Shown here in pieces: positions 33,678 to 61,181 of a stretch of 64,000 bases of DNA; positions within the stretch are counted from its first letter, which is position 1; each line of letters opens with the position of its first letter. Source of the DNA: a virus; the IMG/VR virus record IMGVR_UViG_3300050821_005575, positions 6,981 to 70,980 of that record, one strand, 5' to 3'. Both the position numbers and the translations under genes were made by a program. The notes beneath the pieces are model-generated. The model was not told the DNA's origin. It made no database searches and saw nothing but the letters and a program-made list of their open reading frames with translations.

Positions 33678-34063
33678 AGTGATTGTAATCCCGATGAAAT
33701 GTGAGTGCGGGCGGCGGCTCCGTCGACTACCTAGGAGTCGTGAGCGGAAGTACGGACGTTCGGTCATGGTTTTGTATTGCCCGAGCTGTAACGTTCTTCT
33801 CGAGAAGAGAATCTCAAAGTAGGCACACTACTACGATTGAGTGCAGCGTGAAGAAGGAAAACAAAGACACGATCGGGTGTTTCCTGGTCGTCAGCGCGGT
33901 CATTATCCTCTTCGCCGCTGTCCTGGCTGTCGCGTTTCGGGTGTTCCGAATGATCGCGTACTAAAAACGACAATGTACGACTGTGAAAACTGCGACGAAG
34001 ACTGCGAGTGTCCGTGTCATGTCGACGGCGGATCTTGCGTCTGAGAGTAGATAGGAGAGAGAG

Positions 34064-34714
34064 ATGATCCCGCCAATTGAGTCGCTCGAGGAGCTTCATC
34101 GAGACATCGTCGTCCGCGACATCAAGATCAATAATCTCAGCGAGCACTGCATGGTCGCTGAGAGGGAGGTTAAGGACCTCAAGGGCGTCGTCTCGCAGAA
34201 GAACGCCCAGGTGGTCCGGCTCGAAGCCGAGAACGTCCGCCTGAAGATGCAGCGGACCGACGCCGAACTCGCCGGGCAGGTCGAGGGACTCCGGAAGGAG
34301 GTCGGCATCAAGGACCGCGCGTTGGTCGACTACAAGCGCCAGCTCGCCATCTTCATCGAGAACGAAAAGCTGATCCTCGCTAGGGCGTCCGCCGCCGAGC
34401 AGAAGGTCGCGACGCTCCAGAACACGCTGACGGCGATGCAGGTCGATCGTGACACGTCAGAGCGCCGGGCTGCCTCCGCATCCGACGTTGCCCGCGAGTC
34501 CGAACGTCTCGTCGCACAGGCCGTCGTGAAGGCGAAGGACGCCGACGAGCGCGCCCGCGTCGCCGTGAAGCCGTACGAGAACCTCCTGCGGCTCGCCGAG
34601 GCCGTCGTCCTGAAGTCGCCGTCACTGAACCGCAACGAGACTGAAGCGAAGTCCTTCCGGACGGCGCTCGAGCTGCACCGGAAGTCGAAGGGACAGTCTG
34701 TGGGACCGGGGTAA
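34064..34714 (+). CDS. Coiled-coil hypothetical protein
   Basis: AGGAG RBS; heptad pattern. Confidence 0.65.
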   Translation: MIPPIESLEELHRDIVVRDIKINNLSEHCMVAEREVKDLKGVVSQKNAQVVRLEAENVRLKMQRTDAELAGQVEGLRKEVGIKDRALVDYKRQLAIFIENEKLILARASAAEQKVATLQNTLTAMQVDRDTSERRAASASDVARESERLVAQAVVKAKDADERARVAVKPYENLLRLAEAVVLKSPSLNRNETEAKSFRTALELHRKSKGQSVGPG

Positions 34715-34803
34715 GGGTAGGGCGGGCCGCGGCCGGGAACGCCCCGGCGCGCGGCCCGCCCCGGTTGGGGCGTGCTTCTAGTCGAAGTATACACGGAGGT
34801 CGC

Positions 34804-35079
34804 GTGACGAAGGTCGAGTTCCTGGAGCGCTGGGCGAAGCGCGCGACAGGCGATAAACCCGTCGAGTCCTTCGAGCGGGACCTCGAGTCGCTGATGGCGA
34901 TGACGATCCGGGCGGCGACCTCAGGGATCGCGAAGGGTCTGAACGCCGCGGCCCGGCAGTCCGTCAGCATCATGCACGAGCGAATCCTGCGAGAGGTCGC
35001 CGCGACTGTCGTCCCGGCCGTCGAGGCGGCGCTCATGAAGGCGAATGGCATCGAGGAAGAGGGAGTCGATCCGAAGTGA
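34804..35079 (+). CDS. Hypothetical protein
   Basis: GGAGG RBS and GTG start. Confidence 0.55.
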   Translation: MTKVEFLERWAKRATGDKPVESFERDLESLMAMTIRAATSGIAKGLNAAARQSVSIMHERILREVAATVVPAVEAALMKANGIEEEGVDPK

Positions 35080-35098
35080 TCGTGTACACGGAGACTTT

Positions 35099-35719
35099 AT
35101 GACGCGCGGCACCGAGCAAGGCAAGAAGATCGACGAGATCGCTCTCGACTGGGATTCGCACCTGATCGTCCGATATCACTCCAGTCGGTACGCTCCGACA
35201 TTCACCGTCGAAGCCGGAAACGAAAGCTTCACGGGAGATAACCTGAAGCTCCTGATCGAGCAGGCCACGGTCTACCTGAGCGGCTGGTCGAAACTGAAGT
35301 GGGAGCCGATCATTGCGATCAGGACAGAGGTCTACGATGACATGCGCCCGAGCTTCGAGCGGCTCTTCCGGTCGAAGCATAAGGGGAAGGCCGTTTACCG
35401 CCGCTGGCGCGTCGGCGAGGACGACGAGCCTGAGTTCGGTTCATACCACAAGGATAAGCACGCCAAGACGGAAAACTCTATGGACGGCGTGCCTGGGAGT
35501 ATCGACCGCGGTCCTGGCGGACGCATCGTCGCTTTCACGCCTGAGCGCTGGACGCAGCTCCGGGGGCTTCGGAAGATGCTCGGGGATGCGATGGAGATCG
35601 CCCAGGCAAAGCTATCGAAGATCCTGGCCGATACGTCCGAGTCCGGATTCGACGCCTTCCTGAAGCAGATCTCGAACGGGGATCGCGCCGCCCTGCCGTT
35701 CAACGCTGCACCGAAGTAA
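35099..35719 (+). CDS. Hypothetical protein
   Basis: GGAG RBS; stop codon lies within family A site 35708. Confidence 0.6.
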   Translation: MTRGTEQGKKIDEIALDWDSHLIVRYHSSRYAPTFTVEAGNESFTGDNLKLLIEQATVYLSGWSKLKWEPIIAIRTEVYDDMRPSFERLFRSKHKGKAVYRRWRVGEDDEPEFGSYHKDKHAKTENSMDGVPGSIDRGPGGRIVAFTPERWTQLRGLRKMLGDAMEIAQAKLSKILADTSESGFDAFLKQISNGDRAALPFNAAPK

Positions 35720-35741
35720 CAATGAGTGCTGTGATGATGCT

Positions 35742-36401
35742 ATGACGAGGTGGTGGGCCTTAGATCCTAGGTTCTTCAGTCAACCGGAGAAGAAGATGAG
35801 ACAATGCACGATCTGCGGAAGCCAAGCCGAGCAGCATATGTGCGGCGGGACTCCGACGCTGCCTCCGTACGATAGCCTGTCGGAAGAGATTCGGAATCTT
35901 CGCGCTGGGCTCGAATCTCTCCAGCGGTCTCATATGCAGGACATGGAGATGGCGATTGAGCAGCGCGATAAGGCGTACAGCGAATTGGACGCCATGAAAC
36001 TTCAGATTGGCGAACAGGCCAAGGCGATTCGGAATGTCCAGCGTGCGCTCATACGGAATGAGAACCGTGAAATCAACATGGGCGAGGCTTGGGCGCTGAT
36101 CACGGAGGCCGTCGCTGAAAAGCCAAAGAGCGAGAGCGGTGAGGCGATGGTCTGGAGGGCCTGCCCAGAGCACAAGCACCACGAGAAGAAGCCGTTCAAG
36201 TGGGGCCCGTCGCCGTGGCACCCCTGCCCGAACTGTGAATACCGGAACATCACCGAGAAACTGGAGACCGGCCCGCAGACGTTCACCGAGAAGCGGTCTG
36301 AGTCCTCACGGAAGATCGAGCATTGCAAGTCGCCCGCCTGCAATGGTGACGACAATTGCCAATGCAAGTGCTATGACTGCCTTCAAATCGTGAACTTCTG
36401 A
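35742..36401 (+). CDS. Hypothetical mosaic protein with Cys clusters
   Basis: Long ORF following family A site 35708. Confidence 0.5.
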   Translation: MTRWWALDPRFFSQPEKKMRQCTICGSQAEQHMCGGTPTLPPYDSLSEEIRNLRAGLESLQRSHMQDMEMAIEQRDKAYSELDAMKLQIGEQAKAIRNVQRALIRNENREINMGEAWALITEAVAEKPKSESGEAMVWRACPEHKHHEKKPFKWGPSPWHPCPNCEYRNITEKLETGPQTFTEKRSESSRKIEHCKSPACNGDDNCQCKCYDCLQIVNF

Positions 36402-36578
36402 AGAACGCATTTAGGATTGACAGATGAATAAGGACATCAAGAAGTGCCCGCCTTGTACCAAGGAAACCGGAAGGCAGGGGTTTGTCATCCGGTACTACCG
36501 GGGCGGGAGAATCCGGCTGCACAAGAAATGCGCCCGGCAGTTCGATCAGAATAGAAGTGCGTTTGGCTTTTGAGCTAT

Positions 36579-37135: not shown

Positions 37136-37519
37136 GCTCTGTGGTTCCACGCTTCAAGGTCATGGGCCAGACGTCCATTGCAACCTTCCCTATGGACACC
37201 GGAAACTGAAGTGCTTCAGCGCAATCGAATGTCAGGACGGTGTTCTGCTCTGCCTGGAATGGCACTTCGTCCCGGCAGAAGAACGAAAAGCGACCGACAC
37301 TTCCAGCGAAAGGAGTAAGTCATGAGCGATCGAGAAAGAATCGTGAAAGCTTTAGAAGAGGCTCTTCGGAAGACTGAGGAGATTACGAACGCCCAGAGGA
37401 AGCAGTGGCCGAACACAAAAGCTTGGGGCAATACGCTAGCCGCCCGCGAGGCTATGGCAGCGACCTTTCGAGAAGCGATTGAGATTGCTAGGACAGCTTA
37501 GTAGGATAGGCACAGAATA

Positions 37520-38440
37520 ATGGAAGAGTGCAGACTCCATCCGACAGCCGGACGGCACTTCGTCCACGTCTTTCCGAGCGATCCGTTTCTCGGAGAGATC
37601 CGAGACTGCTATAGGTCAGCGGCGCGTCGGATCCCCTGGATGTCGGTTGACGATATTTCGTACTGGCATCCTGACCGACCAGAATGGGGCGACCGTGAGC
37701 GTGTGGTGATATTCTGGGGAGCGTCCCCTGGCTGGATCCCGAGGCACCGACGAGCCGCTGCAGTCCTGCGCTATACAGAGTCTGTCGGAATCCCGGAAGG
37801 TCTGAATCCAGTTCAGCGTCAGCTCGTCGAGCAGTTTTCGGCGTGCTCAGAAGCTTTCGATATGCTACTCGGTGGAACCGTAACAGTCGCCGACTTCTGG
37901 TCCGGGAAGTACAAGATGACCGCCTTCGCGCCGATCGGCTACGAGCCGGAGATCCTCGGTCGACCGGACTGGTCGACGCCGAAGATCGCAGACTTCGCCT
38001 TCCGAGGGAATCTCATCGGCCGTCGGATGTACATCATGAAGAAGCTTCAGAAGTCCTTTCTGAACATCAACTGGATCCACTCGTTCGGCCTCGAGAGGAA
38101 ATTTCAGCTAGATAAAACGCTGATTGACCTGTACATCGGTCATTCCAGCGACCTGAGCTTTCCAGGGATGCGTCTCTGGCAGGGAATCTCTTCGTCGGCG
38201 GCGCTCGTCATGGAGCCTCGGGATGCATGGCCCGCGGTCGCCGGTCGTCACTATATCGAGATCCCTGAGGCCGATCCGGACCTCTTCGGCTTCTTCGTCG
38301 AGAAGCTGCGGGAGCTCCTGCGGGACACCGCCGCCCTTCGGTTGATCGCAGAGACGGCCCATAAGGAGCTCTCGGCCTATACGATCGACCGGTGTATGGA
38401 GGACTTTGTCGTCCCGGCAACGAAGGGGCTGCGCGGGTGA
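37520..38440 (+). CDS. Putative glycosyltransferase (CgeB/Glyco_trans_1_2-like)
   Basis: DFAFRG..R, RLWQ, GRHYI, LIAETA pattern; ATG lies inside family A site 37510. Confidence 0.6.
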   Translation: MEECRLHPTAGRHFVHVFPSDPFLGEIRDCYRSAARRIPWMSVDDISYWHPDRPEWGDRERVVIFWGASPGWIPRHRRAAAVLRYTESVGIPEGLNPVQRQLVEQFSACSEAFDMLLGGTVTVADFWSGKYKMTAFAPIGYEPEILGRPDWSTPKIADFAFRGNLIGRRMYIMKKLQKSFLNINWIHSFGLERKFQLDKTLIDLYIGHSSDLSFPGMRLWQGISSSAALVMEPRDAWPAVAGRHYIEIPEADPDLFGFFVEKLRELLRDTAALRLIAETAHKELSAYTIDRCMEDFVVPATKGLRG

Positions 38441-39291
38441 ACGACGTCATTCTGTCCCTAACTCCGACCGGCATGGTCCCGACGAAGGCGATGACGCAGT
38501 ACGTTCCGATCGATCCGCCGGAGATCGTCGACGACGTTCTGGCCTGCCACGCGACCGGCATCACGTCGGTCCACCTGCACGCTAGACGTGTTGACGGCAC
38601 ACCGACGCATCGTGCAGATGTCTATGGCCGGATCATCGAGGGGATCCGCCGGGCAGCTCCGGAGATCGTCATCTGCGTCTCGCTGTCAGGTCGGGTCGTC
38701 CGGGATCTCGCTCAGCGCGCCGAGCCGCTGACCCTGCTCGGTGACCTGAAGCCTGACATGGGCTCCCTGACGCTCTCGTCGATGAATTTCCCGGGTCAAC
38801 CGTCCGTCAACGAGCCCGCGGTCATCCAGGGGCTCGCCGAGGAGATGCTCCGACGCGGTGTCGTCCCGGAGCTAGAGATCTTCGATCTCGGAATGGTCAA
38901 CTACGCGCACTATCTGTACGAAAAAGGACTCCTGAAGAAGCCTCTGTACGCGAACATCTTCCTGGGCGGGATCGCCGGGGCTCAGCTAGACCTCGTCCAC
39001 GCCGGGATCCTCCTGAAGGACCTGCCGCAGCTGACCTACTGGTCCTTCGGCGGCCTCGGTGACGCGCAGCTCGGCGCGAACGTCCTAGCCCTGACGATGG
39101 GCGGCGGCGTCCGGGTCGGCCTTGAAGATTCGATCTGGTCGGACCCGTCCAGAACGACGCTGGCGACGAACCTCGACCTCGTCGAGCGGATCCACCGGCT
39201 AGCCGGAATGCTCGGCCGGAAGGTCATGAAGCCGCTGGACTTCCGGATCCTGATGGGCATGGAGATCGCGAAGGGGAGGTACGGGCGATGA
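38437..39291 (+). CDS. Beta-keto acid cleavage enzyme (BKACE/Kce, DUF849)
   Basis: PTG..VHLHAR..PDMGSL..S.NF..PELEIFD.G..GGGVRVGLED. Confidence 0.9.
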   Translation: MNDVILSLTPTGMVPTKAMTQYVPIDPPEIVDDVLACHATGITSVHLHARRVDGTPTHRADVYGRIIEGIRRAAPEIVICVSLSGRVVRDLAQRAEPLTLLGDLKPDMGSLTLSSMNFPGQPSVNEPAVIQGLAEEMLRRGVVPELEIFDLGMVNYAHYLYEKGLLKKPLYANIFLGGIAGAQLDLVHAGILLKDLPQLTYWSFGGLGDAQLGANVLALTMGGGVRVGLEDSIWSDPSRTTLATNLDLVERIHRLAGMLGRKVMKPLDFRILMGMEIAKGRYGR

Positions 39292-39956
39292 CTCGACCGT
39301 TCGTCATGTTCGGCTTCTCGCACCTGTTCGGCGACATCGTCGACTGTATCGAGTCGGTCGACGGACAGCTCGACCGCGTCTACCTGAACGTCCCGGAGAC
39401 CTTCGAGAAGCCGGGACGCGCTTCGCTCTCTCAGAGGATCTCGCGGCTCGGTTATCACGTCACCGTCGAAAACATAATTAGCTTCCGGAGGGTCCACCCA
39501 AGCGAAAGCTACGTCATCGGATTCTCCCGGAGTCAGGCAGATGAGCTTATCCGGCACTTGGAGGTTGGACTCGGACCGTGCAATCCGCTAACCCACAAGT
39601 CGGCGATCCTTCAGATGGGAGCTTCTCTCGGTCCATGGTCGATCGTTAACGCAGGGGCGATTCTCGGCTCCTGGAGCAAGTTCGGCCGCCACGTCATCGT
39701 GAACCGCGGCGCGAATGTCGGACACGACGCCATCGTTGGAGACCACTGCTTCATCGCTCCTGCCGCAGTCCTCTGCAGCCACGTCGTCCTGGACGAGGAC
39801 GTCTTTGTCGGCGCGAACGCGACGATCCTGCCGGACGTCCACGTCGGTGCCGGGGCGACGGTCGCCGCTGGCGCTGTCGTCCTCGAGGACGTCCCGGCGC
39901 ACACGATGGTTGCCGGGGTCCCTGCGGTCGTCAAGAATGCTCCGATCGGTGCCTGA
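39288..39956 (+). CDS. NeuD/PglD-like sugar O-acetyltransferase
   Basis: Hexapeptide repeats, VGHD, VAGVPA. Confidence 0.88.
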   Translation: MTRPFVMFGFSHLFGDIVDCIESVDGQLDRVYLNVPETFEKPGRASLSQRISRLGYHVTVENIISFRRVHPSESYVIGFSRSQADELIRHLEVGLGPCNPLTHKSAILQMGASLGPWSIVNAGAILGSWSKFGRHVIVNRGANVGHDAIVGDHCFIAPAAVLCSHVVLDEDVFVGANATILPDVHVGAGATVAAGAVVLEDVPAHTMVAGVPAVVKNAPIGA

Positions 39957-41464: not shown

Positions 41465-41689
41465 ATGGAAGACGCGATCAAGACCGTCTGCACGATCCTT
41501 GGAGCTCCGATCTGCACGTTTTTCTGGTGGGTTATCAGTCAGTCATTCCAGAAAACCCTCGTAAAGGACACCGGCTGGAAGTGGCTGAAGTACCCGTTCA
41601 TGATCGCAGACGGCGCGTACGCCGGACTGTGCGGCTACGCCTTCGCGACCGAACTGACGAGGCTTGGTCTTTTTATAGCTGCACACTAG
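41465..41689 (+). CDS. Small membrane protein
   Basis: Two hydrophobic segments; stop inside family A site 41681. Confidence 0.5.
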   Translation: MEDAIKTVCTILGAPICTFFWWVISQSFQKTLVKDTGWKWLKYPFMIADGAYAGLCGYAFATELTRLGLFIAAH

Positions 41690-41776
41690 AAATATAGTGT
41701 GCAGAATCCGAAACAGAAGCTATAATCCGTCCGGCAGTTGAGCGACTGCCGTGGTGGCATTGTGTTCTTTGGAAAT

Positions 41777-42070: not shown

Positions 42071-42089
42071 TTTACAGGAAGGGAAGAGA

Positions 42090-42638: not shown

Positions 42639-42639
42639 C

Positions 42640-43996: not shown

Positions 43997-43997
43997 T

Positions 43998-44773: not shown

Positions 44774-44794
44774 ACCGCCGACAGGGAGGAGACC

Positions 44795-47023: not shown

Positions 47024-47060
47024 GCACACTAGACCTATTGAGTGCCAAGGGAGGATAGCT

Positions 47061-47333: not shown

Positions 47334-47378
47334 GGTGGCACAGAAGCCGAATTGAGTGCCACTGGGAACGAATTCCGC

Positions 47379-48401: not shown

Positions 48402-48545
48402 ATGATCTGCGCCAATAGGAAGTGCGCCAAGCCGTTCACGCCGGACAAGCCCTGGGGGAAGTATTGCTCCGAAAGTTGCGGGGACAAGGCTCGCCACCAG
48501 CGGTACTACCGGCGCAAGAAGAGGTCGGCACAGAAGGCAGATTGA
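48402..48545 (+). CDS. Zinc-finger mini-protein (below the track cutoff)
   Basis: CANRKC..F..KYCSESC; ends AQKAD* inside site 48528. Confidence 0.6.
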   Translation: MICANRKCAKPFTPDKPWGKYCSESCGDKARHQRYYRRKKRSAQKAD

Positions 48546-48560
48546 GTGCCAGGAGGGGAT

Positions 48561-48709: not shown

Positions 48710-48805
48710 GTGCTGGTCGGAATTATCGTAGGTCTTGCTTACATTCTCGCTGGAGTTCTAGCTGAAGCGTGGGACCGCCAGGACGGGTTGGCACAGAAGA
48801 GGTAA
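48710..48805 (+). CDS. 31-aa membrane peptide (below the track cutoff)
   Basis: GTG in the right arm of site 48693; hydrophobic; ends AQKR* inside site 48791. Confidence 0.4.
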   Translation: MLVGIIVGLAYILAGVLAEAWDRQDGLAQKR

Positions 48806-48808
48806 AGA

Positions 48809-49051
48809 ATGCCGAAGACATTTAAGATTGACCCATGCTGGTTCGGAGAGCGAAAGGTCGTCTATGTCCGCGTAGAACTTCCGAGTCACAAGGACCGAGC
48901 CTCTACGGCGCACTTCGTCGTCTATGGACACTCGGTCGACAAAGTAGCCGACAAGGTCTTCAGTGCCCTAGCGAGAGAGTTCGGGTGGCATGGGGGCGGC
49001 CACCCAAGAGTCGGCCGGACGCCTAAGAAGAAGCTGGCACAGAAAAGGTGA
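48809..49051 (+). CDS. Hypothetical cassette protein
   Basis: ATG in site 48791, stop in site 49037. Confidence 0.6.
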   Translation: MPKTFKIDPCWFGERKVVYVRVELPSHKDRASTAHFVVYGHSVDKVADKVFSALAREFGWHGGGHPRVGRTPKKKLAQKR

Positions 49052-49054
49052 AGA

Positions 49055-49255
49055 GTGCATAAGATCTCGAAGATGATGGCGGCGATCATAGTCAAGAAGG
49101 ATGGCTCCGTCTGCTATACGATTCATGACGCCAAAGGAACTGTTGTGGCAGGTGGCGGAACTCGCCGTGGGAAGAATGCTCCAAAGGATCCGATCAAGAC
49201 GGCCTGCCAGAGCGTTGAGCGAATGCTTAGAGGACTTTTGGCACAGAAAGGCTGA
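49055..49255 (+). CDS. Hypothetical cassette protein
   Basis: GTG in site 49037, stop in site 49241. Confidence 0.55.
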   Translation: MHKISKMMAAIIVKKDGSVCYTIHDAKGTVVAGGGTRRGKNAPKDPIKTACQSVERMLRGLLAQKG

Positions 49256-49259
49256 AAGA

Positions 49260-50300: not shown

Positions 50301-50308
50301 ATCAGATC

Positions 50309-50638: not shown

Positions 50639-50681
50639 TACTGGACAGGTCGGAATCCAGTCTGCATACTATTAGACTACT

Positions 50682-51200
50682 GTGCCGAACGAACGGGAAG
50701 AGATCAGAAGGGCGATTGCTCTTGCAGAGCAGAAAGCGAAGGAGAGACTGATGCGTGGATCCCCGGCATTCCTTCCAGGCTCGTCGTACGTCGCCGGATT
50801 CAGTGAGGAGCCGTCGGTCGTCGTCTCAGTCCAGAAGCTCGGGAACGGGTACATGCTGGACCTCCGGACGAACCCGAAGCGCCCGCCTCTCCCGCGTCCC
50901 GTCCACGTCCCGAGCCCGTTCGCCGGTCAGGATCCCGACGAGTTGATCGACCGGATGATCGACGGCCTCGGCTCACTGGTCCGGTCCATCAACGACAAAG
51001 GGGCGGGAGAGCACTGGAAGGACGAGGACGACCGGAGGCAGGTCCGGGAAGCCTTCCGGATCATGTTCCCCGGCCTGACGAGCAGCGTCGATCGGCTGGT
51101 CTCCGACGAGCCGGAGCCGACCTACGAGGAGCCGCGGCACGAGCAACTCGTCTTCGAGACGAAGGAGAAGCTCTTCGAGTATCTGACGAAGAGCCTGTAG
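50682..51200 (+). CDS. Hypothetical protein
   Basis: GTG start in the right arm of site 50664. Confidence 0.6.
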   Translation: MPNEREEIRRAIALAEQKAKERLMRGSPAFLPGSSYVAGFSEEPSVVVSVQKLGNGYMLDLRTNPKRPPLPRPVHVPSPFAGQDPDELIDRMIDGLGSLVRSINDKGAGEHWKDEDDRRQVREAFRIMFPGLTSSVDRLVSDEPEPTYEEPRHEQLVFETKEKLFEYLTKSL

Positions 51201-51231
51201 TCGGCGCGGCATCGGGAAGAAGGAGAGGGTC

Positions 51232-52277: not shown

Positions 52278-52298
52278 TTCTCAAAGGAGGATCTGACG

Positions 52299-52643: not shown

Positions 52644-52646
52644 ACC

Positions 52647-53271: not shown

Positions 53272-53682
53272 TCGGGGGAACCGTGACAAACCCGTCCGGA
53301 CTTACTAAGGATCCGATCGAAGGCGATGTTCCGGTCGCCTGCACGGTCTCAGGCGCCGTCTACACGCTCCGGAAGGTCGTCGGCGGGGAGACGCCGAAGG
53401 AGCTGGAGGTCGCCCTGCGCGGCCTCGAACGGGACGGCGTCAACATGCGCTTCGTCGGCGTCCCCTGCTCGGACTGCCGGTTCACGGTCTCGACGGACCG
53501 GGACCTCGGCAAGCGCTCGACCTGCGAGTACCGGCCCCTCCGCGGGCCTCTGTACGTCCCCAGACAGACCGGAGCCCTGCCTACCCAGGAACGGGGCTCC
53601 CCACCCCTCTCCTAACGCCAGGAGGGGCCCGGCCTTACACGGGCCCCTCCGGCGGCGTCAGGGGTGGGGTATTGGAGGTTAA

Positions 53683-54132
53683 ATGAAGAAAGTCCAGCTA
53701 AGGAAGAGCGATCTCTTCGCCCTAGTGGATGATGAGGACTACGATCGAGTCTCGAAGTATAGGTGGACTCTTGAGATCCGAAAGAATGGCCTTCGGTACG
53801 CCAGGGCATCCGTCTCCGGAAAGGTTATTCGACTCCATAGATTCATCTTGAACCTACGTCCAGGCGTCGGCAGTGTCGATCATGAGGACGGAGACGGACT
53901 CAATAACACGAAGAAGAACCTACTGGAGACCACAAGGGCGGAAAACGTCCGGAATGGAAGAGTCCATAGCGACTCAACCTCAAGGTATAAAGGGGTCCTC
54001 CGGGTGAAGTTGAGATGGATGGCTAAGCTAATCCTTGGGACGTTCGATACAGAAGAGGAAGCTGCGGCGGCCTACAGGAAAGCATTCCAGGCGTACTTCG
54101 GACGCCCTCCCAGGTACCCATCTAAGGGGTAA
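53683..54132 (+). CDS. HNH endonuclease with AP2-like domain
   Basis: ALVDDED..LHRFI..VDHEDGDGLNN..NL; SRYKGV..LGTFDTEEEAA. Confidence 0.88.
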   Translation: MKKVQLRKSDLFALVDDEDYDRVSKYRWTLEIRKNGLRYARASVSGKVIRLHRFILNLRPGVGSVDHEDGDGLNNTKKNLLETTRAENVRNGRVHSDSTSRYKGVLRVKLRWMAKLILGTFDTEEEAAAAYRKAFQAYFGRPPRYPSKG

Positions 54133-54190
54133 ATACCCCCTCTAGGGATGCACACAACTCTCATTGTGTGCAATATTCCGTTTTTTCGCC

Positions 54191-54219
54191 TTGACTACTG
54201 TACAGTAGTCGTATATAAT
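54191..54219 (+). promoter_or_regulatory. Sigma70 promoter with overlapping 18-bp perfect palindrome (putative operator)
   Basis: TTGACT-N17-TATAAT; GACTACTGTACAGTAGTC at 54193-54210. Confidence 0.7.
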
Positions 54220-54225
54220 CTGGTC

Positions 54226-54831
54226 ATGACGAAGAAGGAGGTCCCCGTGAAGGCGGTCAAGATCAACCGGGAGGCGTGGCTCCGGGCGGCCTACGCGCTC
54301 CTCCGGAGGAAGCTCCTGAAGGAGGCGCCGGAGCAGGTCGCGCTCTCCTGGTCCTTCCCAGCCAAGGGCGGCACCTCGGCGAACCGGCGCCGGATCGGCG
54401 AGTGTCACTACAAGGGCGGCTCGGCCGACGGCGCGATCGAGGGCGACCGGGTCATCCTGATCTCGCCGACGCTGAAGTCGCCCCTGGAGCTCATCGAGAC
54501 CCTCCTGCACGAGATGGTCCACGCGGCCCTGCCGATGGGCTGCGGCCACCGGAAGCAGTTCTCCCGCCTCGCGGCCCGGGTCGGCCTCGTGAAGCCCTGG
54601 ACGGCCACCAAGGCCTCGCCGGAGCTCGCGAAGCGGATTGAGGGTGAGTTCCTGCCCGCCCTGCCCGCGTGGCCCGGCGGCCACCTCGTCATCCAGGCGA
54701 CCCAGAAGAACCGCCAGCTGAAGGGCGTCTGCGAGTGCGAGCGGATCATCCGGGGTTCGGCTAAGCTCTTCGAGGCCGGACCGATCATCTGCGGCCTCTG
54801 CGAGGCGCCCTTCGAGCTGGAGGCGAAGTAG
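54226..54831 (+). CDS. SprT-like zinc metalloprotease
   Basis: TLLHEMVH..GH..F; C-terminal CEC..CGLC. Confidence 0.8.
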   Translation: MTKKEVPVKAVKINREAWLRAAYALLRRKLLKEAPEQVALSWSFPAKGGTSANRRRIGECHYKGGSADGAIEGDRVILISPTLKSPLELIETLLHEMVHAALPMGCGHRKQFSRLAARVGLVKPWTATKASPELAKRIEGEFLPALPAWPGGHLVIQATQKNRQLKGVCECERIIRGSAKLFEAGPIICGLCEAPFELEAK

Positions 54832-54833
54832 AC

Positions 54834-55310
54834 GTGTACACGGACAGATCCCTAGGTCTTGCGATTCGATTCTGGATGCACGTTCAGGTGTCAACGACGA
54901 ACGCCTGCTGGCTCTGGACGGCCTCAACGGTAAAGGGATACGGACAGATCGGAGCTGGTGGCACGGGCGGAAGGATGTTGAAGGCTCACAGGGTCTCCTG
55001 GGAGATGCATAACGGTCAGATTCTGGATGGGATGGGCGTTCTCCATAGTTGCGACACCCCCCTCTGCGTCAATCCGAAGCATCTTTTCCTTGGAACAACG
55101 GCTGATAACAATAAGGACATGGTCGAGAAGGGGAGGCAGGTAAGAGGGTCTCGTGTGGCCCATAAGACCAGCTTGACCGAGGCTAAGGTTTTAGAGATGA
55201 AGCTACTCCTTAAGATTGGACAGATCAGATCTGAGATCTCTAAGAAGTTCAACGTTACGATGAACGTGGTCAATGAGATAGCCAGCGGAAGAACGTGGAG
55301 GCATGTATGA
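54834..55310 (+). CDS. HNH homing endonuclease
   Basis: CWLW..GYG..AHRVSW..VLHSCDTPLCVNPKHL..N..DM..KGR. Confidence 0.9.
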   Translation: MYTDRSLGLAIRFWMHVQVSTTNACWLWTASTVKGYGQIGAGGTGGRMLKAHRVSWEMHNGQILDGMGVLHSCDTPLCVNPKHLFLGTTADNNKDMVEKGRQVRGSRVAHKTSLTEAKVLEMKLLLKIGQIRSEISKKFNVTMNVVNEIASGRTWRHV

Positions 55311-55729
55311 TGACGGAAATCAGGTCTCCTAAACTGTTTAACGGAAAATACACCGTCGAGTCCAAGGCGACCGGCGAGCACCGGACCTTCTGGGTCCGAA
55401 CGCAGCCCACGGACGCCGAGTTCGCGCCCGGCAAGCGCGTCCTGGGGCTCCTGACCGGCACGCAGAACGACGACCCGGACCACTACACCGGCTTCGCCTT
55501 CGTCGACGACAGCGGGATCCACGTCTGGCGCTCGAAGGCCGAGAAGTCCCCGCTCTGGGGGCAGTACGCCGACCTGCTCTGGACGCTGGCCCTGGACGGT
55601 GCCCTATCGCCCTGGGCCGACAAAGGCTTCACGATCCTCATGGAGGGCGCCTGCGTGCGCTGCAATCGACCCCTGACCAACCCTCAGTCGATCAAGACCG
55701 GGATCGGACCGATTTGCGAGGGCCTGTAG
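55307..55729 (+). CDS. DUF6011-like protein
   Basis: CVRCNRPLTNPQSIKTGIGPIC. Confidence 0.8.
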   Translation: MMTEIRSPKLFNGKYTVESKATGEHRTFWVRTQPTDAEFAPGKRVLGLLTGTQNDDPDHYTGFAFVDDSGIHVWRSKAEKSPLWGQYADLLWTLALDGALSPWADKGFTILMEGACVRCNRPLTNPQSIKTGIGPICEGL

Positions 55730-55910
55730 GAGGAATTATGGTCGTGAGAAAAGGTGGCCCTAAGCACTTCTTCGATGGTCATTCAGACCCGGAGTGGATG
55801 GCGATGGCTATGTGGTGGGCTCTCACAAGATCGGAGACGTGCCACCTGCCTATCCGTCGTCCGATGCGCTGCACCTACATGTGGATGTGTTTGAATTGAA
55901 GGAGGAGACC

Positions 55911-56117
55911 ATGTTCTGCGCCACCTGCGTCAGCTACCCGAACCACGTCAGCTTCGCCGCCGAGGTGATCGCCGACGACTACGGCAAGTTCTGCGGCAAC
56001 GGCCTGCGCTTCGCCAGCCCGGACGAGGCGAAGGCGTACGCCAAGGACCTCTTCTCGCGCTGGACCGCCGTCCGGTCCTGGCGCGTCGTCCCGTCGACGG
56101 ATCCCGTGAATCAGTAG
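55911..56117 (+). CDS. Small phage hypothetical protein
   Basis: AAGGAGG RBS; NGLRFA..EA..Y..DL..RW. Confidence 0.65.
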   Translation: MFCATCVSYPNHVSFAAEVIADDYGKFCGNGLRFASPDEAKAYAKDLFSRWTAVRSWRVVPSTDPVNQ

Positions 56118-56130
56118 AAGGAGGAGCCAG

Positions 56131-56460
56131 ATGTCGTTTCCGCCGATTGTCCGCCGCGCGATCCTCGACCGCCAGCCATCCAGGCGTCGCCGCACACAGC
56201 CCGGGTCGACCGTCACCTCGGTCGTCGTCCGGCTCGCCGTCGCTCCGGAGCGGGTCCGACTGTTCAAGATCGACGCGCGTTACCGTCAGCTCAACCTGAG
56301 CACCAAGGAGCTGTCCTGTCTGCAGCCGATCCAGATCACGCTCTTCTGGAATCGCTACGCGTGCCGGTCCGTCCGGCTGATCATCAATCAGCGCCGGGCG
56401 TACCTGCTGTCGGTCACGGAGACCGGAATCGTCGTCTTCTCGTACTCGAAGATCTCTTAG
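56131..56460 (+). CDS. Hypothetical basic protein
   Basis: AAGGAGG RBS. Confidence 0.55.
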   Translation: MSFPPIVRRAILDRQPSRRRRTQPGSTVTSVVVRLAVAPERVRLFKIDARYRQLNLSTKELSCLQPIQITLFWNRYACRSVRLIINQRRAYLLSVTETGIVVFSYSKIS

Positions 56461-56594
56461 GATGTGGCTATGATCCAGGTGATGATGCTCTGCTGGGCGA
56501 ACGGACACGTCGGGGCGGGTGCCCCGCTGGTCCTCCTGGCAGCGGTCCTGCTCGTCGTCGCGCTGCTCGGCAGCATGTCGCGCGAGGAGGGCTC

Positions 56595-56909
56595 ATGAGG
56601 TTATCCGACGTCAACCCCGCGAAGTGCCCGCACCTGTACGCCGCCCTGAAGCGCGGCCAGGAGCGCCAGTACGAGGGCTGGGCGCGTGTCGCCGAGCTGC
56701 GCCGGTCCGGACAGGAGGACGCGGCCGGTCGCCTCGTCCGGAAGCTGCTCGGCGTCCATGGGCCGCCGATGCCGGAGGAGGTCAAGGAGAAGCTCCGCCG
56801 GTACAACGAGGAGCACCGGGACGAGATCCGCGAGAGGCGTCTGCAGGCCGTCGCGACGCGCCGCCGGACGCTGGCGCTCCTGACGACGGGAAGGAGGATC
56901 GGACGTTGA
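56595..56909 (+). CDS. Hypothetical protein
   Basis: GGAGG RBS before ATG 56595. Confidence 0.55.
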   Translation: MRLSDVNPAKCPHLYAALKRGQERQYEGWARVAELRRSGQEDAAGRLVRKLLGVHGPPMPEEVKEKLRRYNEEHRDEIRERRLQAVATRRRTLALLTTGRRIGR

Positions 56910-57046
56910 TCGAGACGAAGCTGAAGTGGACGGTCTACGTCGGCGGTCGCCTGCTCGATGTCATGACCGACGAGCAGGTCGAGGAGATGATCCAGACCTG
57001 GAAGGTGATCCTGATCGACGCGCGACGTGGGCTGATTGAGTTTTGA

Positions 57047-57538
57047 ATGAGCAAGAAAAGGTACGAGGTAATGCCTCTCGAGCTTCGAATGCTTCGGTAT
57101 ATCGACTTCACGTCGACGTGCTGGAACTCAATGAAGGTCCCGACTGATCGTGGTTATACGCAGATCGGAACAGTTGACCAGTCGAAGCCTCCCGGGTCAT
57201 ACCACAAACTCAAGATGTTTCACGTCGCTGTCTGGGAGATCCTTAAAGGAAAGATTAAGGAAGGTCTTCAGTTAGATCACCTATGCCGAAATCCTCGCTG
57301 TGTCAACCCGAAGCATCTTGAGCCTGTAACTCCAAGGGTAAACACGCTTAGAAGTCTCGCTCCATCCGCCTTCAATTCGAGAAAGACGAAGTGTCTTCTT
57401 GGGCACCCATTCAATAGGGAAAACACCTACCGATATCGTGGGTATCGAGCATGTAAGATTTGCAGAAGAAGGCAGCTTAGAGAATCAAGACAAAGAAAAC
57501 TCTACAGGACTGTAAAGGAGGGGATGCGCCCCTGCTGA
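57047..57538 (+). CDS. HNH homing endonuclease
   Basis: LDHLCRNPRCVNPKHLEPVT..N..KTKC..GH..CKIC. Confidence 0.9.
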   Translation: MSKKRYEVMPLELRMLRYIDFTSTCWNSMKVPTDRGYTQIGTVDQSKPPGSYHKLKMFHVAVWEILKGKIKEGLQLDHLCRNPRCVNPKHLEPVTPRVNTLRSLAPSAFNSRKTKCLLGHPFNRENTYRYRGYRACKICRRRQLRESRQRKLYRTVKEGMRPC

Positions 57539-57639
57539 GCGGTAACCCCTCTCTATCCGGGCCGGAGCACTTCGCTCCGGCCCTCCTCGCGGGCGGCCCG
57601 AGTGGACCGTCCACGAGGAATGAAGGAGGAGTTATAGCT

Positions 57640-57897
57640 ATGACGACGAGCGACGAGAGGTACCCTCAGCACGCGAAGTTGAAGAAGGTTTCTGATAAGA
57701 CGCAGTTCGTCCATGACTTTCTGACCTTCTGTGAAGGGAAGGGTATCAGCCTTCAGACTGAGGATGGCGTCTACAAGCGACACGCAGATCTGCTTTACGA
57801 GTTCACCGGGATCGACCAGTGGAAGCTCGAGGACGAAAAGCGGTCGCTGATCGAAGACTGCAGGAAAATGATCGACAGTAGCAGGAAGAAGAGGTGA
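57640..57897 (+). CDS. Hypothetical protein
   Basis: AAGGAGG RBS. Confidence 0.6.
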   Translation: MTTSDERYPQHAKLKKVSDKTQFVHDFLTFCEGKGISLQTEDGVYKRHADLLYEFTGIDQWKLEDEKRSLIEDCRKMIDSSRKKR

Positions 57898-58111
57898 CCT
57901 GCCGCATCTGCCGTCAGCGTCCGGACTTCCGTGCGATCAAGCAGGTTCGCCTGCGCGCGGCGATCTACGGGATCGTCCCGTACGGACTCTGCCTGTGCGG
58001 AATGGAGGTCCTGCCGGACCGGAACGACGTAAACTACCGGAGAAGGTGGAAACGGGCCCTCTGGAGGGCCGTTTCCAGCGCCGGTAACCAGGGGTAATCG
58101 AGGGTGAAACG

Positions 58112-58606
58112 GTGACGAAGAAGGACAGGATCCGCTTCTGGAGCAAGGTGAAGGTCGACCCGACGACCGGCTGCTGGATCTGGACGGCGGCGGTCCGGAC
58201 CTGGAAGGCGGAGCCATGGGATGGGGGCTTTGGCGCCTTCAAGCTCTACGGGAAGGTCGAGCGGGCTCACAAAGTCGCCTACCGGATCCTCTTCGGCTGC
58301 TGGCCGCCAAGAGGGAAGGTCCTCCGGCACGGCTGCGACAACCGGCGCTGCGTGAATGTCCTGGAACACATCGAGCCCGGGACGCAGAAGCAGAACGTCG
58401 CCGACATGATCGCTCGAGGAAGGTCGATTCAGCAGCGTCGAAAGGCTACAATTTCACAGGGAGACGAGAATGGGCAATCCGAACCTTCGCAAGGGCAAAC
58501 CGAATCCGTACGGACCGACCGGCCTGTCGAGACGGGTTTTACTGCAGTTAGAGGACGGTCCCGCGACGATCAGTTCTATCCTTGGCGAGATGGTACCGCG
58601 CAGTGA
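58112..58606 (+). CDS. HNH endonuclease
   Basis: RFWSKV..CWIW..AHKVAY..HGCDNRRCVN..H..GTQKQN. Confidence 0.88.
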   Translation: MTKKDRIRFWSKVKVDPTTGCWIWTAAVRTWKAEPWDGGFGAFKLYGKVERAHKVAYRILFGCWPPRGKVLRHGCDNRRCVNVLEHIEPGTQKQNVADMIARGRSIQQRRKATISQGDENGQSEPSQGQTESVRTDRPVETGFTAVRGRSRDDQFYPWRDGTAQ

Positions 58607-58832
58607 TGGGGTCAACCGTGGGACGATCCTGACGATCTTGAACCGGGCGATCCTGAACGGCCTCGTGACGACGAACCGCCTGGACGGCGCGAAGAAGCCG
58701 TACCTCTTCGAGCTGACGGACGGCGGCCGACGCCGGATCGAGTGGATCCACGGCACGAAGGCGAAGGTTAAAGCGCCGCCCAGGTCGAAGCTCCGGATCG
58801 TCGCGAACCCGAATGTCGAGGAGGATGAGTGA
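58470..58832 (+). CDS. Winged-helix DNA-binding protein
   Basis: VLLQLEDGP...GLV...FELTDGGR (PadR/MarR-like wing). Confidence 0.6.
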   Translation: MGNPNLRKGKPNPYGPTGLSRRVLLQLEDGPATISSILGEMVPRSDGVNRGTILTILNRAILNGLVTTNRLDGAKKPYLFELTDGGRRRIEWIHGTKAKVKAPPRSKLRIVANPNVEEDE

Positions 58833-59134
58833 TGGGCAAGCTCGACGGTGGCGAAATGAGCGACGACATCGAAGAGATCAAGGCTATGATCGCCGACGCC
58901 AATGAGGAGGCACTCCTGGCAGACGGCTTCGACGGCGCGCTGATCGGGTTCGTCGAGATTCCTGGGAAGCTGGTCGCGTTGTACGACAAGGAGAAGTGTA
59001 TCGAGATCCTGATGCTCCGGGACGGCATGTCCTACGAAGGGGCCTACGACTTCTTCGAGTTCAATGTCCGGGACGCCTTCGTTGGCGAGGGGACCCCAGC
59101 CTTCGCGACGATCCTGAGGAAGTCTGCACACTAG
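58832..59134 (+). CDS. Conserved phage hypothetical protein
   Basis: ADGFDGALIG..YD..CIEIL..A..FFEFN..VGEGTP; stop inside site 59126. Confidence 0.75.
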   Translation: MGKLDGGEMSDDIEEIKAMIADANEEALLADGFDGALIGFVEIPGKLVALYDKEKCIEILMLRDGMSYEGAYDFFEFNVRDAFVGEGTPAFATILRKSAH

Positions 59135-59192
59135 ATAAATTCTGTGCCGTAGGATATATAATCGTACAGCGGGAAGATAATAAGGAGTCGAC

Positions 59193-59393
59193 ATGCTTTC
59201 GTTGATGCCAGGGCTCATCTGCTTTCACGGGAAAGAGTCTGGGGTCATCCTGGCAATAAGCTCCGACGAGAAGTGCGCGCTATTTGCAGGGAAGGACATG
59301 ACTCCTCTTCGGTGGGTAGAGATTGGTGAGATCACCGGGGATCCGGCTGCAATAGTCTCCGGAGATGACATCAAGAAGCTTCGCCCCAGGTAA
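59193..59393 (+). CDS. Hypothetical cassette protein
   Basis: TAAGGAG RBS; stop is the first TAA of site 59391. Confidence 0.6.
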   Translation: MLSLMPGLICFHGKESGVILAISSDEKCALFAGKDMTPLRWVEIGEITGDPAAIVSGDDIKKLRPR

Positions 59394-59418
59394 TCTTAGT
59401 GGAAGAAGATAAACAGCT

Positions 59419-59871
59419 ATGAAAGTGATACCTAAGCTGTTCCATGGCACCTTGGTAAAGTACGTCTCAGATATCCTCGAAAAAGGTATCGAAGAGGGGG
59501 AAGGCTGGGGCGGCGCTGGAACTGTCGGTACGTTCCTTTCTGGGACACCAGAAGGAGCTCTGTATTGGGCGAAGCTCGCGTACATGCGGTACAACGACGA
59601 GAGGATGGAGGCTGACAGGTTCGATCGTGACCACGGCGATGAGGCAGACAAACTAATCGCCGTAATTGCCGTCCAAATACCTACCCACGCTGAAGATGAA
59701 CTAAAGGCCGATGAGGAACAGTTCGAGGACGTCATGGCGGACTTTTCTCCGGACGACTGGAGGCAGTCGTTAAAGGAGATCGGAGACGTGCGTTTTGACG
59801 GCTCGATTCCTCCGGAGTGGATAAAAGAAGTTATTCGCCCAAGCGACGTAAAGACGTCTGGCCGTAGGTAA
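59419..59871 (+). CDS. ADP-ribosyltransferase-fold protein (tentative)
   Basis: LFHGT...IL..GI...FLS....A..WA...IPPEWI resembles ART/Tpt1-like motifs; stop in site 59869. Confidence 0.55.
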   Translation: MKVIPKLFHGTLVKYVSDILEKGIEEGEGWGGAGTVGTFLSGTPEGALYWAKLAYMRYNDERMEADRFDRDHGDEADKLIAVIAVQIPTHAEDELKADEEQFEDVMADFSPDDWRQSLKEIGDVRFDGSIPPEWIKEVIRPSDVKTSGRR

Positions 59872-59903
59872 TCTTCTCGGCAGAAGATAATAGAAAGGAT
59901 TTT

Positions 59904-60116
59904 ATGGCCGTACCAAAAGTCATCCGGAAGTTGCTTATCGGGAGTTACGTGAAGTTGAAGAAGCCGATCCATCGACACGACCTTCACATCCCAAAGGGAA
60001 CTGTCGGATACATCATGAGCGTCAGCGAGCGCGGCACGTCAGCAATGATTGGCTTCGACGACGGAAGGAAGTACGGGAAGTTCGAGTGCTGGTTCAAGGA
60101 TCTCGACCCCGCCTAG
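59904..60116 (+). CDS. Small SH3-like hypothetical protein
   Basis: GSYVKL...IPKGTVG.I..V pattern; stop in CCTAGG before site 60118. Confidence 0.55.
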   Translation: MAVPKVIRKLLIGSYVKLKKPIHRHDLHIPKGTVGYIMSVSERGTSAMIGFDDGRKYGKFECWFKDLDPA

Positions 60117-60125
60117 GTAATCTTC

Positions 60126-60557
60126 ATGGAAAAGCCGAAGTTCCAACTCAAGCGCCAGGGAACCGTGATCGTCGAGTACGACGACGAGAACGGCTACACC
60201 GTCGGCCTGCCGGACGGCTCGGTCGAGTTCGCGACCAGCAGGAAGGGCGTTGAGAGGATCGCGAAGAAGTGGAGCAAGGAGAACATTCCGCCCGGGTACA
60301 ACGGTGGACTCCTGGAGATCGACTACCGCAGCGAAGGCCCGCGCAAGAATCCGATTGAGGATCCGTTCATATTCCATCTGAAGCCTAGCGGCTGGACCGG
60401 TGCTCCTTGTCCGATCTGCGGCTGCGCGACCAAGAACCTCCGGGCAAAGCATCGGGCGTTGAAGGCAGATGAGGCGCACGAGTGGGGCGTCCCGTACATC
60501 AAGCGCGTCAGCGTGTCGTTCGGCGGGGACTTCTCCGACGAGCCTCTGAAGGAGTGA
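60126..60557 (+). CDS. Two-module hypothetical protein joined at RKNP
   Basis: ATG directly after the family B left arm; CPICG in the second module. Confidence 0.6.
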   Translation: MEKPKFQLKRQGTVIVEYDDENGYTVGLPDGSVEFATSRKGVERIAKKWSKENIPPGYNGGLLEIDYRSEGPRKNPIEDPFIFHLKPSGWTGAPCPICGCATKNLRAKHRALKADEAHEWGVPYIKRVSVSFGGDFSDEPLKE

Positions 60558-60558
60558 T

Positions 60559-60900
60559 ATGAGCCTTTCCTGCTACGACACCGTCGAGAGGCATGTCCGA
60601 GGTGAAGGGACTGACTACGGCACGACAGGATTCTTGATCCTAACGCACGGATCCCTTCGGCTGGTCTGGAGGCCCGGGAGCACGATCTGGGCTGGAATCG
60701 GCCGCACGGCATACTCTCCCGCGTGCCTTCAGGTCGAAGGCTATGGGTCGCGGGCGCTAAAAGGCACCGAACTATTAAGCGGAGGACGACTGACCGAGGA
60801 TCGGTGGCTGTCGGTCAGGAAGAAAATCTCAATCCTCCTCTCAGTTCCTTTAGAGATGATCCCGGAGATGCTTCCGGAGCGTACAATCGAGTTCCCCTAG
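60559..60900 (+). CDS. Hypothetical protein
   Basis: AAGGAG RBS; stop in CCTAGG before site 60902. Confidence 0.6.
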   Translation: MSLSCYDTVERHVRGEGTDYGTTGFLILTHGSLRLVWRPGSTIWAGIGRTAYSPACLQVEGYGSRALKGTELLSGGRLTEDRWLSVRKKISILLSVPLEMIPEMLPERTIEFP

Positions 60901-60926
60901 GTAATCTTCTTGGTGGAAGATAAACG

Positions 60927-61115
60927 ATGCACATCAACACGCGCCAGTGGAGCCCATGGGACGGGTACTATTGGTGGCATCGCTGGGAGAACGGCCGGGC
61001 CGAAGTCGTTCCGGTCTTCGTCTCGAAGTTCAGAGCATGGCGCCCGGTTCAGCAGCGGCCTCGAGATGGCACAGTCGTTCGCCATAAGACAGGCGGCTTA
61101 AAGCGCGTTGCCTAG
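60927..61115 (+). CDS. Hypothetical cassette protein
   Basis: Exactly fills the space between sites 60902 and 61117. Confidence 0.5.
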   Translation: MHINTRQWSPWDGYYWWHRWENGRAEVVPVFVSKFRAWRPVQQRPRDGTVVRHKTGGLKRVA

Positions 61116-61181
61116 GTAATCTGTTCTGCGTACGATTATAGCTGCACAGATCTGTGATTCGGTGCCGGAAGAGAGGTAGGC

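Follow-up and report, generated by a model that had tools for sequence, protein, structure and literature searches.

The stretch of DNA analysed here, called the window, comprises 64,000 of the 70,980 bases of a virus record (IMG/VR virus record IMGVR_UViG_3300050821_005575, positions 6,981 to 70,980). The record is a single contig whose ends overlap, and the virus (G000) is thus assembled as a 70,980-bp circle. Positions are window coordinates unless another genome is named. Plus-strand genes span 16.7-61.4 kb. They start with a DinG-like helicase, an AAA_24 protein, a D5-type primase, glycosyltransferases and methyltransferases, and continue from ~33.8 kb as a long series of small genes, the majority without any family. 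The junctions in this accessory arm carry short dyad-symmetric sites of two families, 14 A-sites and five B-sites, and a tyrosine recombinase gene lies among them. Each site has its own 6-bp centre, and in related viruses the centres are kept in order while the genes change.

Three relatives from IMG/VR (G001, G002 and G003; 67-71 kb) were found by protein-guided scans, and the whole records were compared with G000. Further relatives from metagenomes and IMG/VR, given G or L numbers, have recombinases that are 44-74% identical. The aligned parts of the genomes are about 70-85% identical, and the accessory arm is strongly mosaic.

The exact pattern GCAC-N14-GTGC occurs 12 times in the window; shuffled sequences have a mean of 0.70 and a maximum of 4, and none of 100 shuffles reaches 12. 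Other spacings (N10-N13 and N15-N18) give 0-3 matches each in the whole 70,980-bp record. A weight matrix adds two near-copies, one at 48791 with a right arm ending in ATGC and one at 50664 with GCAT, which scores higher on the minus strand. All 14 A-sites score at least 19 bits and lie at gene junctions within 33823-61165. No matrix match of at least 19 bits is present in the remaining ~44 kb of the genome, and shuffled genomes give 0-1 matches at 14 bits; the sole further match with two mismatches, at 59294, is chance-like. A first-pass annotation had listed 16 sites; the repeat is real but the number is 14, and the whole-record scan agrees with its placement of the sites at gene boundaries of the accessory region only. 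The consensus is (T)G-GCACA-S-W-A-N6-TTGAGTGC-CA. Symmetry reaches outward to TGGCAC...GTGCCA, extending the 8-6-8 geometry to about 10-6-10. Oriented by the matrix, 13 of the 14 sites run parallel to transcription. The 14 centres are mutually different, and five consecutive sites are referred to as core slots a1-a5:

33823..33844, plus strand: A-site, centre CTACGA, exact, 27.7 bits; same centre and homologous right flank in G001
35708..35729, plus strand: A-site, centre GTAACA, exact; a 224-amino-acid (aa) upstream open reading frame (ORF) ends inside it (223 open codons in frame 1, then TAA at site position 10)
37510..37531, plus strand: A-site, centre TAATGG, exact; contains the ATG of a 306-aa gene; same centre in G002, one base off in G003 (TCATGG), right flank homologous in both
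41681..41702, plus strand: A-site, centre GAAATA, exact; 18 nt upstream of the TATAAT at 41721-41726, predicted to drive the transfer-messenger RNA (tmRNA), methyltransferase and recombinase genes; centre and -10 element also in G001, G002 and L034
46415..46436, plus strand: A-site, centre ATCGGG, exact; followed by promoter 46445-46473
47024..47045, plus strand: A-site, core slot a1, centre GACCTA, exact; same centre in G001, G002, G003, G005 and L040/G007
47338..47359, plus strand: A-site, core slot a2, centre GCCGAA, exact; followed by promoter 47379-47406
48528..48549, plus strand: A-site, core slot a3, centre GGCAGA, exact; identical 22-mer in G002, G003, G005, L037, L040/G007 and one contig of a metagenome-assembled genome (MAG)
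48791..48812, plus strand: A-site, core slot a4, centre GAGGTA, right arm AAGAATGC, ATG at site positions 19-21; found by matrix
49037..49058, plus strand: A-site, core slot a5, centre AAGGTG, exact
50664..50685, minus strand: reversed A-site separating gene families 82 and 83, with a minus-strand score of 24.7 bits; also reversed relative to both families in G001 and G002
54150..54171, plus strand: A-site, centre CTCTCA, exact; followed by promoter 54191-54219; matches the ends of rearranged G002 blocks
59126..59147, plus strand: A-site, centre GATAAA, exact; overlaps the -35 region of a promoter with TATAAT at 59157-59162; site and right flank kept in all four genomes, inverted in G002
61144..61165, plus strand: A-site, centre CTGTGA, exact; immediately after the last B-site; the centre also follows the G002 B array and occurs at L040 4494

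A degenerate copy of a4 with the same left arm and centre and a spacing of 13 lies at 48693-48714, ~100 bp upstream of the real a4; it may be the leftover of a duplicated site.

Genes often run into the sites. At eight of the 14, the frame of the GCA codon runs without interruption through 34 or more upstream codons and terminates within the site, and at three more the stop abuts the site edge in that frame; the earlier figure of nine is therefore roughly right. Over the 48 sites of the four genomes, a stop lies inside the site in frame 1, which reads GCA-CAG/CAC, at 36, in frame 2 at 4 and in frame 3 at 13. An ORF of at least 50 codons begins at the GTG or ATG at positions 19-21 in six of the 14 sites, against five in the first-pass annotation, and comparison suggests that some of these genes truly begin at a later ATG with its own Shine-Dalgarno. 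Promoters adjoin sites as had been noted, at five of them (41681, 46415, 47338, 54150 and 59126) rather than four. In the promoter after site 54150 (54191-54225), the spacer contains a 10-bp palindrome, ACTGTACAGT, and the -10 element is overlapped by a B-like half-site, TAATCTGG.

In the relatives, exact A-sites number 12 in G001, 8 in G002 and 9 in G003; a reversed-pattern control gives 0, 1 and 4. The core centres a1-a5 are found at five consecutive sites in identical order in G000, G001, G002 and G003. Partial ordered runs are present in G005 (a1, a2, a3 and a5, with no exact match to a4), G007/L040 (a1, a3, a4) and L037 (a2, a3, a4), whose recombinases are 55-66% identical to that of the window (L037 and L040, 55-58%). 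Several 22-mers are base-for-base identical in L037/L040 despite the diverged recombinase, and the one from the MAG contig is identical in company with proteins of 28-41% identity. Within a slot (78 pairs), pairwise identity is 0.99 in the centre, 0.97-0.98 in the outer arms, 0.85 and 0.88 in the inner arms and 0.32 and 0.41 in the flanks, and between slots the centres are 0.38 identical; slots were set by order and centre jointly, and the identities are free of circularity only for the ordered runs a1-a5 and b1-b5 (the latter below), because there the match in order is itself evidence. The first-pass annotation had treated differing spacers as a difficulty. They do differ within a genome, but they are specific to the slot and kept across genomes, and this is the main feature of the sites. 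Of the 79 cross-genome A-site pairs that share a centre, 68 lack flank homology within 40 nt on either side, 11 are homologous on the right only and none on the left only. The a1 and a2 centres are invariant yet serve as no stop, Shine-Dalgarno or start. Variants of the inner arms show no clear linkage to the neighbouring gene by eye.

A repeat search and a pattern scan identified the second family, TAATCTTC-N6-GAAGATAA, with the same 8-6-8 geometry as A. B copies number five in G000, three in G001, eight in G002, five in G003 and three in L040, at this spacing only; 0.045 are expected in shuffles. The five centres of G000 are mutually different, and the sites of one array share one orientation:

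59159..59180, plus strand: B-site b1, TAATCGTA-CAGCGG-GAAGATAA; left arm overlaps a -10 element
59391..59412, plus strand: B-site b2, centre GTGGAA
59869..59890, plus strand: B-site b3, centre TCGGCA
60902..60923, plus strand: B-site b4, centre TTGGTG
61117..61138, plus strand: B-site b5, TAATCTGT-TCTGCG-TACGATTA, with an end-type right arm

The order of the B centres is likewise kept across genomes: CAGCGG (G000) or CAACGG (G001-G003), then GTGGAA, TCGGCA, TTGGTG and TCTGCG. Within slots (47 pairs), identity is 0.99 in the centre and 0.85 and 0.89 in the inner arms, and 40 of 44 same-centre pairs from different genomes have no homologous flank. The end sites have distinct arms (TAATCGTA and TACGATTA), which are paired with different centres in different genomes. 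Both families thus have the arm-6 bp-arm geometry of dif and pdif sites recognised earlier for A, and only at this spacing. In G002 (reverse complement of the record), two copies of the promoter plus B array lie in opposite orientation at ~11182-24460, and the block between them is inverted relative to G000; this segment might flip in the population.

The first-pass annotation had proposed that its idea be judged by whether breakpoints in relatives map to the sites. Genes gained, lost, replaced, inverted and moved do have their ends at sites. A breakpoint was found at 60 of 67 junctions with a site versus 242 of 369 without (odds ratio 4.5, p 4e-5), in 12 ordered genome pairs that are not independent and with rough gene calls. 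A 170-bp segment of 95% identity (46428-46597), shared between site 46415 of G000 and site 58178 of G001, starts exactly at the right arm; the centre and the left side differ. In five further pairs a homologous flank is joined to a different centre, with the switch at the arm/centre border:

A-site pairs: G002 23139 versus G001 4453, and versus G003 43563
B-site pairs: 59159 versus G002 17201; 61117 versus G002 24432; 59391 versus G003 45257

Inverted or permuted blocks of G002 end at sites 11182, 15488, 17234 and 23139 (reoriented G002 coordinates), and inverted B arrays with the same centres bracket its inverted block. In G001, GAGGTA occurs at 60139 and 61163 as a direct repeat around extra genes. 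In G003, one gene is flanked by the TTGGTG B-site at 45631 and by a second, degenerate copy immediately ahead of gene family 158. Direct repeats of one centre around extra genes would be the expected trace of the integration of a circle. The region 46437-46597 carries a strong promoter, TTGACA-17-TATACT, followed by ~130 nt that are 95% identical to G001 in genomes otherwise about 75% identical; its long ORF is not conserved, and the region may encode a small RNA or a leader.

The candidate enzyme is encoded inside the array, after a site plus promoter, in every genome:

42640..43425, plus strand: tyrosine recombinase, 261 aa with a Cys-rich N-terminus; PF00589, 1.9e-16

This gene had been called a tyrosine recombinase in the first-pass annotation. 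The call stands: besides the PF00589 match, the catalytic set is complete, with R119, K147, H209, R212, W235 and Y244 invariant in 11 homologous sequences. The predicted structure has a mean predicted local distance difference test score (pLDDT) of 72, and its N-terminal Cys-rich 80 residues are poor (pLDDT 36-64). The closest folds are XerH (5jjv, bound to difH, E 1.1e-6) and XerA (5hxy), both single-recombinase Xer enzymes, then the P2 and HP1 integrases, the integron integrase 2a3v, Cre and lambda Int. All NCBIfam cut-offs are far missed; the integron integrase model TIGR02249 scores 27.9 bits against a cut-off of 265, and the best match, a XerA-type model, 53.7 against 220. Matches to PF00589 and PF00239 give a single tyrosine recombinase and no serine recombinase per genome. 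Directly 3' of the recombinase gene, at 43422-43996, lie the genes of two small Cys-rich proteins, one of 115 aa and one of 76 aa, both with CxxC pairs. Neither has a family match. The 76-aa protein (family 66) is called in G000-G002; the 115-aa protein (family 65) is called in G000 and G003 and also matched by tblastn in L036 and L037. The two may act as DNA-binding partners.

The sites are very probably evolutionary crossover points of some kind. That the exchange is enzymatic, that it occurs at the centre, and by which enzyme, we infer. The A- and B-sites could well be heterospecific core sites for conservative site-specific recombination, the reading that we tentatively favour. Each site would consist of two inverted protein-binding arms (~8-10 bp) around a 6-bp overlap region, and each junction, or slot boundary, would carry its own overlap sequence. 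Tyrosine recombinases require a matching overlap in both partners, and a boundary would therefore pair only with its own kind, whether carried by a co-infecting relative or by circular DNA. The genes between two boundaries could then be exchanged, gained (leaving a duplicated site) or inverted, and the rest of the array would be neither deleted nor scrambled. Three features bear on this model: i) the fixed geometry common to two arm families indicates dimeric arm-reading proteins; ii) the centres, irrelevant between slots and invariant within a slot, indicate partner matching by base pairing; and iii) since all centres differ within G000, deletion between sites would be prevented. The engine would be the virus's own XerH/XerA-like recombinase; that the 42640 protein is the enzyme acting at the sites is a doubtful assignment. 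It is conceivable, though we hold it with reserve, that this soil-virus lineage runs a natural recombinase-mediated cassette exchange, with two orthogonal site families, 6-bp labels kept by the lineage, slot-by-slot trade, insertion of circles, flipping of blocks, and the XerH/XerA-like engine, perhaps together with the two small Cys-rich proteins.

A number of observations weigh against site-specific recombination. Of 302 gene-content breakpoints, 242 are at site-free junctions, and the sites are therefore not the sole places where gene content changes. Gene family 158 is found in three slots (a4-a5, a1-a2 and b4-b5), where same-centre exchange cannot place it. Outer arm bases are invariant and the inner bases, beside the presumed cleavage points, vary; dif and lox sites have the reverse pattern. 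There are two unrelated arm families but one recombinase per genome. L041 has a recombinase 53% identical, yet no A-site, B-site or other dyad repeat in its available 20.7 kb, by which a different dyad repeat co-varying with its recombinase was rejected; L043 and L044 have no A- or B-sites either. The slot identities carry the partial circularity noted above. No near-identical genome pair differing by one unit is present among the relatives, which leaves no recent single swap to map; L035 and G003 are one and the same sequence, all other pairs are about 70-75% identical in their aligned parts, and only six cross-genome segments reach 90% identity. Recombination itself was not seen directly. 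A single public run contains the stretch, a soil metagenome that is probably the source of the contig, and no RNA run is listed. The Logan contigs of this run over 41500-61400 show no joints or variants at a flat ~10x depth, and one contig break at 50815-50833 is away from any site; such contigs are blind to rare excised circles or isomers and speak neither for nor against recombination. Finally, the three best sigma-70-like promoters of the arm (46445, 47379 and 54191) and two TATAAT elements (41721 and 59157) all adjoin A-sites. At 41681 and 59126 the -35 region lies under the right arm of the site, and a -10 element lies under b1. So tight a tie to all recognisable promoters of the arm suggests that at least some sites are operators, and because of these overlaps some probably act as operators too.

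These promoters lead to a different explanation, in which the sites are operators or roadblocks for dimeric transcription regulators, one per family, acting like stoperators, and recombination is incidental, using them only as conserved junction sequence. We consider it rather unlikely, but it accounts for a good deal. Every strong promoter of the arm adjoins an A-site, with the overlaps just described, and two regulators suit two families better than one recombinase. Like the stoperators of L5 as reportedly described by Brown et al. in 1997, the sites are scattered over junctions with one prevailing orientation and overlap stop and start codons. Stoperators are known from Cluster A mycobacteriophages (PMC9283540, in its available part), and a parallel is offered by Cluster O phages, which, in the part of the report at hand, have more than 30 dyad repeats of unknown function thought to be bound by a dimeric protein (PMC4351075). 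A regulator that reads the arms would not be expected to keep the centre better than the inner arms, nor to make it slot-specific, and the invariant a1 and a2 centres have no stop, Shine-Dalgarno or start function to preserve. Nine of the 14 A-sites have no nearby promoter, and where there is one the distance varies, with site centres at an estimated -32, -40, -54, -64 and -65 or so. No helix-turn-helix or repressor family was found among ~47 distinct window proteins scanned in Pfam, most of the small proteins being familyless. The motif TGGCAC was also considered as a sigma-54 promoter and rejected, as its spacing to any TTGC is unfit by eye.

An unlikely explanation is that the sites are short linker homologies, within whose 22-26 identical bases homologous or microhomology crossover between co-infecting relatives takes place by ordinary or phage-encoded functions, with no dedicated site-specific enzyme. 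A precedent is provided by the PeSL repeats of T4-type phages, junction repeats that mediate modular shuffling and mini-circles according to the available parts of two reports (PMC2839356, PMC4122927). Homologous exchange would likewise be expected to leave identity islands between unrelated flanks, and inserts bordered by duplicated sites. The many breakpoints elsewhere indicate that illegitimate recombination is active in the arm, and the right end of the 95%-identical module at 46428-46597 is the next start codon, not a site. Homologous exchange requires neither dyad symmetry nor an 8-6-8 geometry common to two unrelated families, gives no reason for a centre kept better than the inner arms, and would have to work on 22 bp, which is very short for efficient homologous recombination.

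Action in RNA, as translation junction signals (stop, ribosome-binding, restart) or as processing hairpins in polycistronic early transcripts, is very improbable: it would fit the frame-1 stops in 36 of 48 sites, the Shine-Dalgarno-like GAGGTA and AAGGTG centres with ATG/GTG at 19-21, and the B arms, which are able to form a 7-8 bp hairpin, but the A arms pair over GCAC/GUGC only (a 4-bp stem at most) with inner mismatches that are conserved and have no compensating changes, many downstream genes have their own Shine-Dalgarno and ATG past the site, the a1 and a2 centres have no translational role, and the centres have no antisense partner elsewhere in the genome. On these grounds A-site hairpins (conserved inner-arm mismatches) and an antisense RNA partner (none in the genome) were both rejected.

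Comparison with known systems places the sites in context. The label integron-like, used in the first-pass annotation, describes a likeness: an array of small, mostly unrelated genes between recombination-type sites, with a tyrosine recombinase in the element. It does not extend to membership, as three defining features are lacking: the IntI score, the size and type of the sites, and the gene arrangement. In integrons, attC sites are imperfect palindromes of ~57-141 bp recombined as folded single strands, and attI and a common promoter lie beside the integrase gene, with promoterless cassettes downstream. Here the recombinase is not IntI (27.9 versus 265 bits), and the sites, unlike folded attC, are duplex-type dyads of 22-26 bp in which 8-bp arms enclose a 6-bp centre. 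An attI and common-promoter arrangement is absent; the recombinase lies mid-array in a unit opened by site 41681, at least five units have their own promoter elements, and the order is conserved by the centres. Integrons have been reported in phages (PMC9892861, as far as the available part of the source goes).

In the dif modules of Acinetobacter plasmids, many short arm-6 bp-arm sites (pdif, XerC/XerD) bound accessory modules that differ between related replicons, and rearrangements occur between identical or near-identical spacers (PMC13141974, in its available part). The carrier here is a virus, the centres form an ordered series conserved genome-wide, and there are two arm families. Neighbouring dif-module sites alternate (C and D modules), whereas 13 of 14 A-sites share one orientation, as do the B-sites within any one array. 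The enzymes there are host XerC/XerD; here there is a single virus-encoded candidate. We take the A and B arms to be unlike the dif consensus sequences. The other near likeness is engineered cassette exchange with heterospecific lox or FRT sites which, from the portions of that literature at hand, shares common arms, mutually different spacers that do not cross-react, and swapping of a unit without deletion. Engineered exchange is a laboratory design with two sites; here it would be, if the predicted activity is real, a natural array of 14 + 5 sites, whose A and B centres are all different within G000 and where the same centre takes the same position across genomes. By this comparison the system would work most like dif modules and engineered cassette exchange.

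Stoperators of Cluster A are asymmetric 13-bp sites for a monomeric immunity repressor, whose gene is present; the sites here are symmetric 22-mers. The likeness to stoperators and Cluster O repeats is in dozens of short protein-binding repeats at gene junctions, some over stop or start codons, with a role partly or wholly beyond promoter control; as described in the available parts of the reports, neither has slot-specific centres such as those seen here, and of the Cluster O repeats few or none take part in indels (PMC4351075). PeSL cassettes resemble the sites as a repeated junction motif in a hyperplastic accessory part that marks gene insertion, deletion and replacement (PMC2839356, PMC4122927, each in its available part). 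They are described there as promoter-plus-terminator units, all alike and recombined by homology, whereas here each site has its own centre, only five of 14 A-sites adjoin a promoter, and none of 17 terminator-like matches adjoins any site. The overlap is limited to the idea of a junction repeat mediating shuffling. Literature searches, supplementary files aside, gave no account of phage genomes with junction sites that are ordered and centre-specific.

The mosaic nature of phage genomes has long raised the question of how unrelated genes can be swapped so cleanly at their borders; Botstein's modular theory is said to have predicted linker sequences. Here the junctions are conserved, labelled and ordered while the genes change, and a defined 22-bp substrate and a single candidate enzyme make the question testable. 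Should the sites be active, viruses would have a new route to trade accessory genes, for example those for host takeover, and genome engineering a ready set of mutually exclusive recombination sites. If they are regulator sites instead, slot-specific centres across viruses with 55-66% identical recombinases still need explaining.

Outside the array, minus-strand genes occupy the first 17 kb of the window (1-16300) and its last 2.4 kb (61668-64000), plus 7 kb outside it (L001). They are large, up to 766 aa. No Pfam or PHROG match and no structural family (terminase, portal, tail) was found among those searched (10 proteins in PHROGs and 10 in Pfam, five in common). A phage collection of 50,697 records contains no close relative, and protein searches there returned distant primases and integrases only. 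The host is a bacterium, as the virus has a complete tmRNA gene at 41777-42070 on the plus strand (tag GKRQLLAAA; 105.9 bits in Rfam), flanked by the promoter of site 41681 and the methyltransferase gene. The corresponding promoter of G001 and G002 leads directly into the methyltransferase gene and leaves no space for a tmRNA; the tmRNA gene of G000 looks like an inserted unit. A MAG contig labelled Nitrospiraceae has two A-sites at its end; the remaining MAG is not enriched (38 matches versus 139 in the control) and no host was assigned. A beta-keto acid cleavage enzyme (BKACE, 1.8e-70) is encoded beside a hexapeptide acyltransferase at 38392-39956, and the pair is kept in G002 and G003. Three HNH_3-type endonuclease-like proteins are encoded in the accessory arm, at 53683-54132 (just before site 54150), 54834-55310 and 58112-58606. 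The last is above the Pfam cut-off (27.3 versus 24.8 bits), the first is below it (20.4 bits), and the one at 54834-55310 joins family 90 by similarity only.

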